Shown piece after piece: positions 10,630-28,029 of a stretch of DNA of 28,513 nucleotides (position 1 is the stretch's first letter; every line of letters begins with the position of its first letter). Made by a program: the position numbers and the translations under genes. This DNA comes from a virus (lineage: Duplodnaviria; Caudoviricetes), in the IMG/VR virus record IMGVR_UViG_3300047403_000123, positions 1-28,513 of that record, one strand, 5' to 3'. The notes under the pieces were generated by a model, which ran no database searches, was not told where the DNA came from, and worked only from the letters and a program-made list of their open reading frames with translations.

Positions 10630-10663
10630 CGCCGGCCTCCTCGTGGGGGCGGCGCTTTTTTTT
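10630..10663 (+). terminator. Rho-independent terminator of the late/lysis operon (weakly bidirectional)
   Basis: CGCCG(G)CCTCC-TCGT-GGGGGCGGCG hairpin followed by an 8-T run, between convergent genes. Confidence 0.85.
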
Positions 10664-10681
10664 GTGGCCGGATGGGCGGCA

Positions 10682-11005
10682 TCACATGCTCTTATTGTTA
10701 GCGGTCAGCCAGTCCAATTGATGGCGCGCTATCCATGGCCCGACTAAATCATTGTCGATCAGCACATAGGCATCGCGTAATGCCTCAATCAGCCTGTCAT
10801 TTTCTTCGGACAACTCGACGTTTGCCATAGACCGCGCCTGCAACAAAACAGCTTCGGCTCCGATGTCGCGCTCATGTTTCGCTATTTCGCGCAGTCGCTC
10901 GATTTCCGCAACCAGCAATTCGTCAATGCGCGGTTCGTAGCCTTCAAATCGCGTTCGGCCTTCCGACACCTTCTTGACGATAGTCATTGCCTCATCGATG
11001 GTCAT
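10682..11005 (-). CDS. Hypothetical coiled-coil protein
   Basis: ATG at 11005 follows the linker AGAAAGGGCCGCCC; LVAEIERLR motif common in small phage proteins. Confidence 0.7.
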   Translation of the reverse strand: MTIDEAMTIVKKVSEGRTRFEGYEPRIDELLVAEIERLREIAKHERDIGAEAVLLQARSMANVELSEENDRLIEALRDAYVLIDNDLVGPWIARHQLDWLTANNKSM

Positions 11006-11024
11006 GGGCGGCCCTTTCTTCACT
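11005..11024 (-). repeat. Gene-boundary linker repeat, copy 1 (AGTGAAGAAAGGGCCGCCCA)
   Basis: 20/20 identical to 11668-11687. Confidence 0.9.
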
Positions 11025-11271
11025 TATGAACGATGACGTGGGGAACTGGCATTAAATCTGCCAGTAACTTGACGACACGATCATGCTCGTTTTGCAGTGG
11101 CCGAACCCGCGCCGCATGCTCATTCCATATTCGACTTTGTTCCAGGCGAGTGTCATGCTGGCAGGCCGCCAATTCTGTGATGCGCTGCCAAGTATTGGCG
11201 TATTCGTCGGCCAATCTCTGCGCATTGGCGCGCAGAAATGCGCGAGCGGCATCCATATCGGTTTCGAGCAA
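11020..11271 (-). CDS. Hypothetical helical protein
   Basis: Fills the gap exactly between neighbours; TTG start after TAGAGGCCGCCA. Confidence 0.6.
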   Translation of the reverse strand: MLETDMDAARAFLRANAQRLADEYANTWQRITELAACQHDTRLEQSRIWNEHAARVRPLQNEHDRVVKLLADLMPVPHVIVHK

Positions 11272-11280
11272 TGGCGGCCT

Positions 11281-11667
11281 CTACTGTTTCAAGTTGTTGA
11301 ATGGCGATCTGGCCCGGTTGAATTTATCGCGGGACACGATCCGGCGCAGAAAACCAAACCGAAGACCTACGGTCTCGTCGTTGTTCGGGCCGGCAAAAAT
11401 GGTCTCCTTGCAATCCTCGATCCGGTTGCCATGCGCCCAGCATAGGCATGGCACGTTGTTTTTTGTCCACATCCAAATATCGTGGCAGTGCTCGCATGTG
11501 GCGAACGTGTCGAAGTTCCCGCCCCATACCCCAGCAACATGCTCGTATTGCTCTCCCGGCAGAATACGGCCCCCGCACTCGCAGCATTTATGTTCCTTGC
11601 GCGCCCTACGGATAGCCTTGTTGTAGAAGGCCGGAGCGTCGTAGTCGCATGAACAGTCCCACGACAT
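11281..11667 (-). CDS. Cys-rich zinc-finger-like phage protein, allele A
   Basis: RARKEHKCCECG...TCEHC...PCLCWAHG; 120/128 aa identical to 12205..12591. Confidence 0.85.
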   Translation of the reverse strand: MSWDCSCDYDAPAFYNKAIRRARKEHKCCECGGRILPGEQYEHVAGVWGGNFDTFATCEHCHDIWMWTKNNVPCLCWAHGNRIEDCKETIFAGPNNDETVGLRFGFLRRIVSRDKFNRARSPFNNLKQ

Positions 11668-11687
11668 TGGGCGGCCCTTTCTTCACT
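11668..11687 (-). repeat. Gene-boundary linker repeat, copy 2
   Basis: + strand TGGGCGGCCCTTTCTTCACT, identical to 11005-11024. Confidence 0.9.
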
Positions 11688-11854
11688 CTGAATTCGGCAC
11701 CGGCTAACCGCTTTTCGTCCGCTATCCGCTGCATGCCGGCGGCGCGTCGATCCAGTCGGCTTGATCTCCTGCCACGCCCCGGTGCAACGTGGCCATATCC
11801 CATCTTCTTTATAAGACCGCAGCCGGAGACGGGATCGCGTCTGCGGAATTTCGT

Positions 11855-11864
11855 GGCCCTTTCT
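11855..11864 (-). repeat. Partial linker repeat (AGAAAGGGCC)
   Basis: 10-bp match located 10 nt after the stop codon of 11875..12195. Confidence 0.6.
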
Positions 11865-11874
11865 CTATCCGTCG

Positions 11875-12195
11875 TTAGCGACAATCGGCGCGCATTTCGG
11901 CGGCAGCCTCTGCCTCGGCCCGCGCCTCGCCATCGGCGCGCTCGATAAGTTGGTCGGATACCTCGTCGCTGGTATCGAATATGGCGCGCAGCCAGTCCGG
12001 CACATCGGCGCCGGTCTTGGCGTGCTTCACGGTGATAATTTCCAGCTCGGCTGGATCGCCCGGATATCCAGGATCACCGTTCCGCAGATAATAGACATGC
12101 GGAGTCTCCGGCCGGTAGGTGAATGTCACTTCAAACGCCACATCATCGATGCCTGCGATGGTCAGATATACGATATCGGTTTGCACATTAGCCAT
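11875..12195 (-). CDS. Hypothetical acidic phage protein (NGDPGYPGDPAE motif)
   Basis: ATG after TAGGGGCCGGCC; non-overlapping fit in the operon. Confidence 0.75.
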   Translation of the reverse strand: MANVQTDIVYLTIAGIDDVAFEVTFTYRPETPHVYYLRNGDPGYPGDPAELEIITVKHAKTGADVPDWLRAIFDTSDEVSDQLIERADGEARAEAEAAAEMRADCR

Positions 12196-12204
12196 GGCCG
12201 GCCC

Positions 12205-12591
12205 CTACTGTTTCGAGTTGTTGAAGGGCGATCTAGCCCGATTGAACCTATCGCGGGACACAATCCGGCGTAAAAAACCAAACCGCAGACCTACGGTCTC
12301 AGTATTGTTGGGGCCGCCGAAAATTGTCTCTTTGCAGTCCTCGATCCGGTTGCCATGCGCCCAACACAGACATGGCACGTTGTTCTTTGTCCACATCCAA
12401 ATATCGTGGCAACGCTCGCACGTCATGAACGTGTCGAAATTCCCTTCCCATACGCCGGCCACATGCTCGTATTGATCCCCCGGCAGAATGCGACCTCCGC
12501 ACTCGCAACATTTGTGTTCCTTGCGCGCCCGACGGATAGCCTTGTTGTAAAAGGCCGGAGCGTCATAGTCGCATGAACAGTCCCACGACAT
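12205..12591 (-). CDS. Cys-rich zinc-finger-like phage protein, allele B
   Basis: True start at 12591 by alignment to allele A; preceded by the linker. Confidence 0.85.
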   Translation of the reverse strand: MSWDCSCDYDAPAFYNKAIRRARKEHKCCECGGRILPGDQYEHVAGVWEGNFDTFMTCERCHDIWMWTKNNVPCLCWAHGNRIEDCKETIFGGPNNTETVGLRFGFLRRIVSRDRFNRARSPFNNSKQ

Positions 12592-12606
12592 TGGGCGGCC
12601 CTTTCT
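12592..12606 (-). repeat. Gene-boundary linker repeat, copy 3 (AGAAAGGGCCGCCCA)
   Basis: 15/15 match to copies 1 and 2. Confidence 0.85.
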
Positions 12607-12619
12607 GTATTGCCGGCGG

Positions 12620-12919
12620 CTAGGCCGCCAGCGCCTTCCTCGACACATAAACCTCAAAGTCGGGGTCAACCGTCTTTTCCCCGGTGCGGCCGAATTCGAG
12701 AATGATCTTGGAGCCGTCGCAGAGCGCATCAACGCCGACGATCTCGCGCCACGGATCATAACCGCAATCTTCGGCATAGGCCGAGAACGTGTAGCCGGTC
12801 GCATCCGGGTGACCCAGCAGCCATTTGGCTGTGACGGCTTGGCGCCCGCACCGCTCAGCGGCGTATTGGCCCGGCTGTTCGCTGGGAATGCGGTATTTGT
12901 GTTCGATGATGCCTGCCAT
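12620..12919 (-). CDS. Hypothetical protein, first gene of the leftward island operon
   Basis: RBS gggag 6 nt before the ATG; directly downstream of a promoter. Confidence 0.75.
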   Translation of the reverse strand: MAGIIEHKYRIPSEQPGQYAAERCGRQAVTAKWLLGHPDATGYTFSAYAEDCGYDPWREIVGVDALCDGSKIILEFGRTGEKTVDPDFEVYVSRKALAA

Positions 12920-12969
12920 TTCAATCTCCCACCGGTATCCCGTGACTCCCGTTTCGGGAGCGTGATTTC

Positions 12970-12998
12970 TTTATACGCCTATCGAAAAAAGAATGCAA
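12970..12998 (-). promoter_or_regulatory. Sigma70 promoter for the leftward island operon
   Basis: TTGCAT-N17-TATAAA. Confidence 0.75.
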
Positions 12999-13018
12999 TA
13001 GCCCGTGCGGATAATTTC

Positions 13019-13047
13019 TTGACTATTTGAACATCCGCCCATATAGT
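13019..13047 (+). promoter_or_regulatory. Sigma70 promoter for the resolvase operon (likely leaderless mRNA)
   Basis: TTGACT-N17-TATAGT, followed by 7 nt and then ATG 13055. Confidence 0.75.
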
Positions 13048-13054
13048 CGAGGGT

Positions 13055-13669
13055 ATGGGAAAGACTGTCCTGGCCGTCGCGGCCCCAAAGGGCGAATTGA
13101 TCGGTTATGCTCGGGTTTCGACCCGCGAGCAGACCCTTGACATGCAATTGGACGCCCTGCTGTCGGCCGGCTGCCTCGAAATCTATGAGGAAAAGCTGTC
13201 GGCGACCTCTAAGCGGCGCAAGGAATTGAACCTCGCGATCAAGGCATTGCGGCCCGGCGATACCCTGGTGGTATGGCGGCTCGACCGGCTGGCCCGGTCG
13301 ATGCGCGAGCTATACGAGCGGCTGGATCAGATCAGCGAGGCCGGCGCCGGGTTCCGTTCTCTGACGGAGCATTTCGATTTTACCACGGCGACCGGTAAGC
13401 TGGTGCTCGGGTTCCTGGGCCTGATGGCCGAGTTCGAGCGGCAGTTGACTATCGAGCGCACCATGGCCGGCATGAAGGCGGCCCGCGAGCGCGGCGCGTC
13501 ATTCGGCGCCCCCCGGAAATTCACTGCTGCCAAGCAGCGCGAGGCCAAGCGGTTGCTGGCCCTCAAGGGTGCGCACAAGCTGAACAAGAAGAAGATTGCG
13601 GCGCGGCTCGGGATCAGTGCCGGGCTGCTGCACCAATGGCTACGGCGCGGTGCGCCGATTGAAAAATAG
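13055..13669 (+). CDS. Small serine recombinase (resolvase/invertase family) with a C-terminal HTH
   Basis: IGYARVSTREQ, GDTLVVWRLDRLARS, MAEFER..IERT.AG..AARERG..FG.P, HTH IAARLGIS. Confidence 0.96.
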   Translation: MGKTVLAVAAPKGELIGYARVSTREQTLDMQLDALLSAGCLEIYEEKLSATSKRRKELNLAIKALRPGDTLVVWRLDRLARSMRELYERLDQISEAGAGFRSLTEHFDFTTATGKLVLGFLGLMAEFERQLTIERTMAGMKAARERGASFGAPRKFTAAKQREAKRLLALKGAHKLNKKKIAARLGISAGLLHQWLRRGAPIEK

Positions 13670-13679
13670 GAGCCGGCCG

Positions 13680-13835
13680 ATGGGCGTCTCGTGGCTTACG
13701 AACCGCGTCCGCAAGACGGAGCCCAAACCTGGACTTGGCTGGTGCATGCGTTGCGATAGGACGCTGATCGGCACGGGTGAGAAATGTAAGTGCTGCGGTT
13801 TCCGTAACACTAAGACAAAGGCGCGGAAGAAATAA
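13680..13835 (+). CDS. Small zinc-ribbon protein (51 aa)
   Basis: RBS aggag; CMRC...CKCC; basic. Confidence 0.65.
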   Translation: MGVSWLTNRVRKTEPKPGLGWCMRCDRTLIGTGEKCKCCGFRNTKTKARKK

Positions 13836-14278
13836 TGAGCGGGGTGGCCATGAGGCCCGTCAGTGCTGAGACTATCAATGATCTGGTAACGGCGGCGCTC
13901 GTCATTCTAGCGCGCAATAAAGTGACGCCAGATATCGGCGAACATCTCTTGTATGGCGACCCTATGCGTGGCGTGCCACCTATGGTGCTTCGCAAGATTA
14001 TCGAGCATGTCGCCAACCATATATTGATCCCCGCGCCAGCACCAACAGTCACCATCCCGCTCGCTGACTATGACCGGCTACTACAGCTTATCGAGTTCGA
14101 CGACATGCTAGTGACGTGTCAGGTCTGTGGTGCATGGCTCGATCGTAGTGATCCGGCATGTGCCGCAGTCGAAGATTTTAACGGCTGCTGGAAGGTCGCG
14201 AGCGACCGAAATTCTGATCAATCGCTGTGTCGCTCATACCGAGCGACCGTGCGCGAGCAACCAAAGACAACACCATAG
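13835..14278 (+). CDS. Hypothetical protein with a C-terminal Cys cluster
   Basis: TAATG coupling (alternative start 13850); CQVC..C..C..C. Confidence 0.7.
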   Translation: MSGVAMRPVSAETINDLVTAALVILARNKVTPDIGEHLLYGDPMRGVPPMVLRKIIEHVANHILIPAPAPTVTIPLADYDRLLQLIEFDDMLVTCQVCGAWLDRSDPACAAVEDFNGCWKVASDRNSDQSLCRSYRATVREQPKTTP

Positions 14279-14289
14279 GAGCCGACGCG

Positions 14290-14424
14290 ATGCGCGTATA
14301 TAAAGTCAATTGTTTATATGCTTCATCGGCGGTTGTGACGACGATCAGCATCACAGCCGCCAGCCCCGGAGAGGCGTGGACTATCGCAATGCTGCACGGC
14401 TACACGCCGATTTCGGTGCGATAA
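14290..14424 (+). CDS. Small hypothetical protein (44 aa)
   Basis: RBS aggag in TAGGAGCCGACGCG-ATG. Confidence 0.55.
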   Translation: MRVYKVNCLYASSAVVTTISITAASPGEAWTIAMLHGYTPISVR

Positions 14425-14453
14425 AAAGGGAGCGGCGATAAGCCCAACCGGGC

Positions 14454-14602
14454 TCCGGCCAATGTTTGCGCAGAACAGCCTGCGCATATTTGTCGATTTC
14501 GCAGAATGCAACCGTCCGCATCCCTGCCCGTTCCAGGCCAAGGCTAAAACCGCCTATGCCGCTGAAAAGGTCCAGAACGCGCACGACCGCTGCCCATATC
14601 AT
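14454..14602 (-). pseudogene. Truncated C5-cytosine DNA methyltransferase (N-terminal ~50 codons only)
   Basis: VRVLDLFSGIGGFSLGLERAGMRTVAFCEIDKYAQAVLRKHWP covers motifs I-II; no motif IV (GFPCQ) or ENV follows; the frame runs into island sequence and stops at 14381. Confidence 0.88.
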
Positions 14603-15475: not shown

Positions 15476-15504
15476 TATATAGCACTACGCCATATTGTCG
15501 TCAA
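15476..15504 (-). promoter_or_regulatory. Sigma70 promoter with an overlapping 17-bp operator-like site (15486-15502)
   Basis: TTGACG-N17-TATATA; TACGCCATATTGTCGTC matches the palindrome at 28061-28077 at 13/17 positions. Confidence 0.7.
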
Positions 15505-15772
15505 GCTCTCTGAGCATCTGAGCATAGACTGCCATGTCATCTAGGCTGTCAGCGTGTCCGCCATTCTCGAAGGTGTTGGAATATCTGCATAATTTTTGCA
15601 CAATAAATGCAAACGTCACAAACCGCGTGAAATCGTGCGCTGTTTCAATCGTAACGGGGCCGCCGTATATGTCCCATAACACATTGCCAATATTGGCATA
15701 TTGGTCGCCATAGGTTTTGGCCCGTTCCTCGAACAATCCAGCGAGACTGCGCAATCGCTCTGGTACACTCAT
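15485..15772 (-). CDS. DUF6378/NMAD1-like all-alpha nucleotide pyrophosphatase-like protein
   Basis: ERAKTYG...KLCRY...HADSLDDMAVYA motif pattern. Confidence 0.65.
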   Translation of the reverse strand: MSVPERLRSLAGLFEERAKTYGDQYANIGNVLWDIYGGPVTIETAHDFTRFVTFAFIVQKLCRYSNTFENGGHADSLDDMAVYAQMLRELDDNMA

Positions 15773-26954: not shown

Positions 26955-27698
26955 TTAGTAATTCTCCGCTTCAATGCGAGTGATGAAAAAATGAATGCCG
27001 CTAGAGCATTCATTCTGCCAGTTTTCGTCCCATTTATCGGGTTTAACGCGCTGGCCAACGCGGTATTCGGTTTTGTTGTCGTGATCGGAAACAGCAACAT
27101 TCGCGCCTATAACTTCCAGCACGTCGGCAAATTCAGCGCGGCATTTACGGCCGAAAGCGTGGGATCGGCGCGCGTCTGACGGGATGCGCAGTTTTACGAG
27201 TATTTTGCCGGAGCACTTTTTCCAGCCGATCAGGTCGCCATCGGGAAGAATGCGCGTTTGTGCAACGGCAAGTTCTGAATTTTTGGTGCCGGCCAGATCG
27301 GCGCCGGCCAGATTGGCGCGGGCCAGATTGGCGCCGGCCAGATCGGCGCTGGCCAGATTGGCGCCGGCCAGATAGGCGTCGGCCAGATCGGCGCTGGCCA
27401 GATTGGCGCCGGCCAGATCGGCGCCGGCCAGATTGGCGCCGGCCAGATCGGCGCTGGCCAGATCGGCGCCGGCCAGATTGGCGCCGGCCAGATCGGCGCC
27501 GGCCAGATTGGCGCCGGCCAGATCGGCGCTGGCCAGATCGGCGCCGGCCAGATAGGCGTCGGCCAGATCGGCGCGAGTTTTAATTGCCCATTTCACAGCC
27601 AGCCCAAGTTTAATCGAATAATTGTCATCCGGGTTGCATTCGATTTCGGCGACGACTTGGACGGCACCAGTAAACCGGTTTTTGATTTCAAATTGCAT
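26955..27698 (-). CDS. Pentapeptide-repeat protein with a DUF5758-like C-terminal domain
   Basis: MQFEIKNRFTG start; 19 A(D/N/Y)LAx repeats; LIGWKK..KCRAE..ECSSGIHFF. Confidence 0.9.
   Translation of the reverse strand: MQFEIKNRFTGAVQVVAEIECNPDDNYSIKLGLAVKWAIKTRADLADAYLAGADLASADLAGANLAGADLAGANLAGADLASADLAGANLAGADLAGANLASADLADAYLAGANLASADLAGANLARANLAGADLAGTKNSELAVAQTRILPDGDLIGWKKCSGKILVKLRIPSDARRSHAFGRKCRAEFADVLEVIGANVAVSDHDNKTEYRVGQRVKPDKWDENWQNECSSGIHFFITRIEAENY
27288..27572 (-). repeat. 19 x 15-bp tandem repeat encoding the pentapeptide repeats
   Basis: Unit is approximately GCCGGCCAGAT(C/T)GGC on the + strand. Confidence 0.95.
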
Positions 27699-27699
27699 G

Positions 27700-28029
27700 T
27701 TAATGCGCCTTTCCCAACATTTGCACCGCTTCTTCGCCGCAATTATCGGCGATGAAATCGCGCAAATAGCTCGGGCAGCCATCTCCCAGCTGATCAAGAC
27801 GGTCATATACTGTTAGCGCCATATCGGCAGTCACGTCGCATGACGTGCCGGCAGCCAGGTCAACGCAGATCACGCGGGAAATGTCGCTATATTGCGCTTC
27901 AATGATGTCGCGCAACACAGTTTCTCGGCCCGTCTCACGGACAGGGCATTCGCGGACGTAATCATCATTTGTGCGGGTTGTGCGGATATACAGCCGCTCA
28001 ATCACCAGATACATTGGGATGGTTGTCAT
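27700..28029 (-). CDS. Hypothetical early protein
   Basis: RBS gaggag; first gene after the promoter. Confidence 0.78.
   Translation of the reverse strand: MTTIPMYLVIERLYIRTTRTNDDYVRECPVRETGRETVLRDIIEAQYSDISRVICVDLAAGTSCDVTADMALTVYDRLDQLGDGCPSYLRDFIADNCGEEAVQMLGKAH

Follow-up and report, generated by a model that had tools for sequence, protein, structure and literature searches.

The window analysed here, a complete linear virus record of 28.5 kb (28,513 nt; IMG/VR record IMGVR_UViG_3300047403_000123; completeness 62%), carries a two-armed array of small genes at the point where its lysis genes and its replication genes converge. At the centre of the array lies a gene for a small serine recombinase of 204 aa (13055..13669, + strand), from which one arm reads outward on either side. 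The array is tied to one clade of recombinases, each arm has its own core sequence at the gene junctions, and breakpoints between strain variants occur at these cores. Such arrays are real, are widespread in uncultured phages and lie outside the families of systems against which we tested them. The central protein belongs to the Pfam family Resolvase (E 1e-40) and matches a PHROG DNA invertase. Its catalytic Ser22 and D-R-x-x-R motif are both intact, and its structural model (predicted local distance difference test, pLDDT, 87.6) finds its best Foldseek matches in Tn3 and gamma-delta resolvase. It therefore has the catalytic domain, with serine and conserved arginine and aspartate, and the C-terminal helix-turn-helix (HTH) that define a small serine recombinase. 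No transposase was found among the 33 and 26 window proteins scanned, a marginal PHROG match (E 0.008) being to the recombinase itself, which agrees with the original prediction of a lone resolvase at the centre of the array.

Relatives of the recombinase were gathered from viral, metagenome and genome contigs. Alignment-based scans covered 24 of the 64 parts of the viral contigs and 2 of the 64 parts of the metagenome contigs, and the clade sample is therefore incomplete. A single-protein scan of the viral contigs returned no recombinase relative, and annotated phages yielded only distant invertases with less than 60% identity. In a tree of 156 distinct recombinases the window protein falls within a group of 35 rows (Shimodaira-Hasegawa-like approximate likelihood ratio test, SH-aLRT, 87, and 95 for a core of 26 rows; quick search); a second run, with FastTree, gave a support of 96, the clade being one side of a branch. 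Among the loci listed, clade members have outward-reading arms of small genes whose content is different at each locus. A GGAG junction is fused to the recombinase's own stop codon in 31/35 clade members versus 3/121 of the others. Moreover, at least four consecutive junctions are found at 17/35 clade loci, compared with 0/45 and 0/76 other resolvase loci and 0/40 stretches (698 kb) of resolvase-free phage records, although the motifs of this detector were learned from the clade and arrays with other motifs would thus be missed. The catalytic serine is present in 34/35 clade members, and Arg20, Asp77, Arg78 and Arg81 in all 35. Across the 35 loci the junction motif is confined to the arms, and the genes flanking the arrays differ widely. 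A second resolvase, in G032, is unrelated and has no array.

The array is also missing from the same place in related backbones. Eight of 11 helicase relatives were inspected; in those reaching the lysis genes (L179, L180, L182, L183 and L185, of which the first four seem to form a single lineage with 65-68% identity) the recombinase and the arms are both absent from this spot. Taken together, the comparison of close homologues that had been proposed as a check finds variable neighbours and linker-bounded arrays tied to a single clade, and the predicted bond between array and recombinase holds both phylogenetically and by this absence. Insertion anchored on tRNA genes was considered and rejected, since tRNAs occur in only 4/35 loci (L043 7800-7873, L073 7815-7888, L058 12315-12388 and L174 10029-10102), at the head, inside or at the end of an arm. 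At the arm-end flanks of 3/42 loci (L016, L301 and L012) lie genes that by eye we take to be IS1595-transposase-like. Full arms are also seen at L215, L008, L009, L172 and L173 beside a recombinase in which phenylalanine replaces the catalytic serine.

The junctions differ from ordinary phage gene boundaries. In the right arms 85% of 176 junctions have gaps of 5-25 nt, and in the left arms 80% of 65. Such gaps make up 31% of 169 gene boundaries in other parts of these loci and 18% of 228 in phages without a resolvase; the gene calls come from a simple caller and include some errors. Ordinary early operons have overlaps at 61% of the 228 boundaries. The two arms use different cores: GGAGC occurs at 92/149 right junctions, 1/54 left junctions and 6/94 spaced controls, and (A/G)GGCC at 30/54 left junctions, 11/149 right junctions and 5/94 spaced controls. 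The right core is a Shine-Dalgarno (SD) sequence and the left core is not. Seven bases upstream of GGAG, G is avoided (3/171 versus 6/37 controls, p 0.001), with 0/58, 0/40 and 2/30 when split by stop register, and the base at this position is locus-specific (within-locus identity 0.52, permuted 0.37). Being independent of stop register and locus-specific, the avoidance is not explained by translation alone. Upstream of GGAG, a shared tail of 7 nt or more is found in 15/457 within-locus pairs, 27/8588 between-locus pairs and 0/777 control pairs.

These data bear on whether the junctions are translation signals only, akin to start-associated sequences (SAS), in a mosaic early region in which the resolvase gene hitch-hikes. 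That the right core is an SD would fit, as would much of what is found when searching from the linker side: 42 of the 48 matches to the right-junction pattern are isolated starts, and L275 and L282 are short runs without a resolvase. However, the other six matches lie in dense arrays. Three of these are clade loci already known, and the other three (L301, L311 and L312) are new; the new ones possess the two arms and the two cores yet lack an intact resolvase. With L265 added, the dense arrays reached from the linker side are centred on a resolvase-family gene in 7/7 cases, three of them already known. The use of overlaps in ordinary operons, the rarity there of gaps of the size common in arrays, the left core and the constraint at -7 also speak against this explanation, and we regard it as very unlikely. 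The left linker of the window has 11 viral matches. Only one of them is array-like, and a divergent resolvase lies 0.85 kb from it; the other ten lack a resolvase and are not in arrays. Short repeated start-associated motifs were also seen in ordinary early operons without a resolvase (L021 9765-10830, minus strand; L200; L282).

In the window itself, the left arm (minus strand) comprises six open reading frames (ORFs) together with a slot in which no ORF is intact, and the right arm three ORFs, as had been predicted. The GC linker thought to be shared by nearly all boundaries does recur, but as two arm-specific linkers, with a core of GGCC on the left and GGAG(C) on the right, and two boundaries depart from it. 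Using matrices trained on other loci only, all six internal left junctions score 10.2-13.1 bits and 3/4 right junctions 13.5-17.3 bits, whereas 30 other window positions (25 true starts and 5 positions off start codons) have a median score of 2.6 bits and reach 10.3 bits at most. The 10-mer AGAAAGGGCC has four copies, each at a left-arm boundary, and none elsewhere in the 28.5 kb; the junction motif as a whole is restricted to the arms.

Reading leftwards, the first gene (12620..12919; 99 aa) has an ordinary SD and encodes a DUF2761 protein, the only arm cassette in the window with a Pfam family. It is followed by junction J1 (12592..12606), cassette 2 (12205..12591; 128 aa, Cys-rich), J2 (12196..12207), cassette 3 (11875..12195; 106 aa), J3 (11855..11864), after which there is no start codon, the slot without an intact ORF (11688..11854), which gave a single weak translated match, J4 (11668..11687), cassette 5 (11281..11667; 128 aa), J5 (11272..11283), cassette 6 (11020..11271; 83 aa, TTG start), J6 (11005..11024), of which 20 nt are identical to J4, and cassette 7 (10682..11005; 107 aa). 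On the right (+ strand), the first junction (13663..13679) overlaps the recombinase stop and leads into cassette 1 (13680..13835; 51 aa, Cys-rich). Gene 2 (13835..14278; 147 aa) overlaps cassette 1 by 1 nt with no junction motif, and is followed by a junction (14272..14289), cassette 3 (14290..14424; 44 aa) and the last right junction with the arm end (14419..14451). Left cassettes 3, 6 and 7 and right cassettes 1 and 3 have no family in Pfam and PHROG scans. Cassettes 2 and 5 are the first and second alleles of one gene, as predicted, with 88% nucleotide identity, 30 synonymous and 8 non-synonymous codon differences, and homology that spans from junction to junction.

Strain variants were compared through assembled contigs only, from runs X6-X8 of one study. 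One contig matches window positions 11670-12600 (931 bp) with zero differences and carries other genes on both sides of this block. The identity starts exactly at the GGCC core of J1 (12600) and ends just past the core of J4, where two different downstream sequences are found. In a variant, 752 other bases stand in place of the first left gene. The recombinase allele of the contig with the identical block shows 68 differences in 617 nt and is followed by a different cassette directly past GGAGC (13673); a break at 13548 is probably divergence only. Another contig, whose backbone is 99% identical, retains only J6 (11001-11022), beside another upstream neighbour, and the last right junction (14426-14451), behind a different cassette. 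The 3′ part of cassette 7 is kept in variants and its 5′ part is different. In total, breakpoints fall at five junctions, and the common breakpoint interval is GGAG(C) in the right arm and GGCC in the left. In a variant, the sequence upstream of J6 resembles the leader of the window's left arm (12930-12950), a likeness that suggests either that the left arm there is much shorter or that the leader was copied.

Non-adjacent duplicates point the same way, with the proviso that they come from assembled contigs and that strain mixing could create some of them. L016 carries a duplicate of 514 nt at 99.8% identity bounded at both ends by junctions, and L301 one of 202 nt at 100% identity bounded by cores; in both of these single-cassette duplicates one copy is first or second in its arm. 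L068 and L073 have in common a block of 581 nt at 100% identity that begins and ends at junctions, and a near-identical duplicate in L318 has one end inside a gene. For the 943-bp piece between the duplicates, contig depth is above the flanks in two runs and below them in two. We rejected a crossover 7-8 bases upstream of GGAG, an idea drawn from the half-site geometry of invertases, because shared blocks begin at or within the core. The predicted shuffling of linker-bounded cassettes is thus borne out as regards variable single-gene cassettes and breakpoints at linkers in variants and duplicates, but some breakpoints lie inside genes.

The same comparisons address the idea that the recombinase acts at the outer ends of the unit and moves it in one piece, as a mobile element or an invertible segment, the junctions being secondary. 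The absence of an array at the same place in a related backbone and the many different genes that arrays adjoin are what such an element would leave. Yet long inverted repeats are missing from its termini, close variants differ in the interior of the array while its two outer ends are conserved, and no inversion joint occurs in the variant contigs, all of which makes movement of the whole unit very unlikely.

The cassettes are diverse: 274 called cassettes form 264 families. Eight families occur in more than one locus, and each stays in one arm; the exception to this constancy is a two-gene block that is on the right in L073 and on the left in L311. Pfam matches were obtained for 20/80 scanned cassettes (the longest of 202 with at least 60 aa, a few repeats being left out), and many are DNA-modifying or RNA-repair enzymes, the families including C5 and Dam methylases, Mom, glycosyltransferase, Thg1, RNA ligase and MazG. 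The duplicated Cys-rich protein of the window has 143 relatives, and in the ESM Atlas it leads only to viral clusters without names. No resolvase lies within 7 kb in its best 23 viral loci, and 12 of these 23, when inspected, proved mostly to be ordinary early operons with 4-nt overlaps. Across these 23 loci and two backbone relatives, 0/25 records gave a Resolvase match.

How, then, are the cassettes exchanged? In the reading we favour, cassette exchange at the cores is the work of the active clade, which also serves, in trans, loci whose own central protein is catalytically dead; from the sequence comparisons we give this a little short of an even chance. Related phages would exchange promoterless single-gene cassettes at the 4-6 base core of the stop-to-start junction, the central serine recombinase likely recognising a junction of about 12 bases and putatively catalysing the exchange, likely during co-infection. 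Back-to-back promoters would drive both arms early in infection, and the different cores would prevent recombination between arms and hence inversion. Cassettes may be recruited from ordinary phage early operons and reformatted so that each has its own stop codon ahead of the next ribosome-binding site. Dead central proteins may have been kept as promoter-binding regulators, their arrays being served by the active enzyme of a co-infecting phage. Catalysis by the clade would explain why the active site is conserved and why a junction lies at the stop of the enzyme itself, as well as the orthogonal cores, the constraint at -7 and the short-core duplicates.

Several observations weigh against it. 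Six arrays (L301, L311 and L318-L321) are centred on proteins without the catalytic serine or arginines. Four of the six lie in 97-100% complete genomes with no Resolvase match and no tyrosine integrase above the cut-off. The 100% core-bounded duplicate sits in one of these dead loci, L301. The central gene of L311 is a degenerate resolvase, and the central protein of L312 belongs to a family of 58 proteins, or 113 clusters at 50% identity, that is large and conserved. None of the 113 clusters has the canonical motif, and Arg, Ser and Arg occur together in only 2/100 aligned. The L312-type model (pLDDT 88.2) matches resolvases first, in the top ten Foldseek rows, and aligns to Tn3 resolvase with a VIA Z of 11.8 and a root mean square deviation of 2.7 over 91 residues. 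A profile comparison of the active and dead families alone is weak (E 0.0013, probability 18%), and the link between them therefore rests on fold. Two-armed arrays were found at 3/3 further viral loci of this family. It follows that an array can persist and turn over without catalysis in cis, and the predicted autonomy of the unit was not upheld. Moreover, about half of the strain breakpoints are off the cores (10879, 10927, 11895, 12932 and 14451/14589), 10879 and 10927 falling within the last left gene. Neither an excised circle nor an inversion joint was found in the variant contigs. The junctions (171 right, 58 left) have no hairpin, with a mean folding z of about 0 to 0.3 on both strands, and no dyad beyond the 4-bp GGCC; attC-like hairpins or dyads were rejected on these tests. 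Resolvases and invertases normally need long sites and act within one supercoiled molecule. Catalysis here would require action in trans for the dead loci and an unusual one-sided site. Of the eight cross-locus cassette families, four are common to active and dead loci, which fits what action in trans needs. The central gene of L301 groups with the L312 family and carries a T5orf172 domain; it and P0295, P0296 and P0298 join a serine-less resolvase-like protein to a C-terminal T5orf172/MUG113 domain, which could supply DNA cutting or could be an antirepressor-type fusion.

The dead family is explained directly if the central protein is instead a resolvase-derived regulator that represses the back-to-back promoters, and perhaps binds the junctions as stoperator-like sites, with general short-homology recombination by phage or host swapping cassettes, selection keeping the junction events, and the catalytic activity of the active clade serving another site. 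We rate this alternative as a close rival, only slightly less likely than the favoured reading. As it would lead one to expect, a conserved family devoid of catalytic residues shows full cassette turnover and retains the junction motifs, and some strain breakpoints lie inside genes. The central promoters also suit it. In the window the promoter region (12920..13054) contains a right promoter (13019-13047) found by scan and a left one (12998-12970) read by eye, with a weak -35; the back-to-back arrangement predicted there gains, beyond the right promoter, from a back-to-back -35 pair that precedes the central gene in 21/42 loci versus 0.7 expected. The central gene lacks an SD in most of the 42 loci; in the window its start is 8 nt past the -10 box and its transcript is probably leaderless. 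Furthermore, the window encodes a YqaJ exonuclease and an AAA_24 protein (Pfam), and there are precedents, in the accessible parts of the sources, for linker-mediated shuffling (PMC2839356) and for asymmetric repressor sites and stoperators (PMC9283540). However, a regulator leaves the conserved active site in need of another substrate, and good inverted repeats occur in the promoter region of only 10/42 loci versus 14/210 shuffles, several being the -35 pair itself. Nor does it explain the arm-exclusive cores or non-adjacent duplicates bounded by 5-6 bp, and a related backbone with a YqaJ-like nuclease gene has no array.

Some features of the promoter region and of the phage stand beside this argument. 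TT(G/A)TCC-type boxes, which we take to be DnaA-box-like, are repeated near the central promoters of L035, L058, L068, L073, L043, L012 and L318 and occur at 13006-13014 in the window; they are a possible operator. In L048 and L023 a short gene, ribbon-helix-helix regulator-like by eye, lies between promoter and recombinase. The left side of the window carries ejection and lysis genes and the right side helicase, primase, YqaJ nuclease and GcrA (Pfam and PHROG scans), and the source is probably an alphaproteobacterial podovirus-like phage. A terminator-like hairpin with a T run (10630..10664, + strand; stem 10635-10650) separates the lysis genes from the end of the left arm, and variants have a 385-nt replacement at this terminator (10639-10658). 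Outside the unit at the other end lies the 5′ fragment of a C5 cytosine methyltransferase gene (14452..14602, minus strand), which ends after about 50 codons, its remainder not being in the 62%-complete record. An inversion relocating the rest was rejected, there being no match within the window. The array had been thought to truncate this gene, a claim that the variants do not bear out: variants missing 14452-14588 join the arm end directly to the backbone, and since they lack the fragment and keep the arm's end, the truncation is not tied to the array. Further to the right, variants have a 131-nt deletion (15534-15666) in the gene at 15485-15772, and a DUF5758 pentapeptide-repeat protein is encoded at 26955-27806 (Pfam).

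A long-standing question is whether the precise gain and swap of small genes at phage gene boundaries is directed by linkers or results from random events plus selection. Here it can be put to test: the protein concerned has 204 aa, the junction 12 bases, and the serine-less family offers a natural control. If the enzyme is responsible, the integron principle would have arisen a second time, independently, with a site that takes up hardly any DNA. If it is not, the array is still an undescribed hotspot and a source of candidate counter-defence genes. A targeted literature search, with subscription journals mostly beyond its reach, found no description of a two-armed, resolvase-centred array.

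The architecture fits the definition of none of the systems considered; with a regulator at its centre it would be a variant of linker-mediated shuffling. The promoter early stem loops (PeSLs) of T4-type phages are units of promoter and stem loop for which the accessible text identifies no dedicated recombinase (PMC2839356). Like these, and like Botstein-Campbell linkers, the array exchanges accessory phage genes at conserved linkers in a hyperplastic region (same source, in part), with linker-bounded insertions, deletions and replacements; unlike them, it has as linker a short stop-SD junction that contains neither promoter nor hairpin and goes with a single protein clade. The right arm resembles the SAS of cluster K mycobacteriophages in having an asymmetric, oriented motif of SD plus extra conserved bases just before the start codons of non-structural genes, but SAS occur across half a genome and remain associated with gene families (PMC3203893, in the portion available). 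The array has two arm-specific motifs in a compact two-armed unit with a central resolvase-family gene, and exchange occurs at the motif. With Tn3 and gamma-delta resolvases, Hin/Gin/Cin invertases and shufflons the recombinase shares its fold, active site, C-terminal HTH and position at divergent promoters. However, Tn3-type resolution differs in that the array has no linked transposase, and no convincing res-like repeats or conserved res-like site were found at the central promoters of 42 loci. Invertases and shufflons probably differ in that the array shows no invertible segment, dyad site at the junctions or long inverted repeats, its arm cores differ, no inversion joint is present in the contigs, and content changes by gain and loss rather than by inversion. 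IS607-family transposases are a precedent for a serine recombinase that needs few target bases beyond the GG dinucleotide over which it exchanges DNA, and both array cores begin with GG, but in this family TnpA carries its DNA-binding domain at the N terminus and mobilises its own element (PMC6188088, accessible part).

Integrons come closest in layout. The array shares with them, so far as the accessible text describes integrons (PMC8618304), tandem promoterless single-ORF cassettes predicted here to be read from a promoter beside the recombinase gene, a first junction that adjoins the recombinase, and non-adjacent duplicates, and arrays without an active enzyme recall clusters of attC sites lacking integron integrases (CALINs). 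In contrast, IntI is a tyrosine integrase (same source and extent) and the array has a serine recombinase with a Pfam Resolvase domain and resolvase fold. It also has two divergent arms with different cores, one of them co-transcribed behind the recombinase, gaps of only 5-25 nt with no attC hairpin, and phages as carriers. Lacking IntI and attC, the array is thus integron-like in layout and not an integron. We tentatively propose, as something less than an even chance, that it is the serine counterpart of integrons: a resolvase-run system for capture and shuffling at one-sided ribosome-binding junctions, with orthogonal arms, a dead sister family whose arrays would be served in trans, and cargo of counter-defence type.

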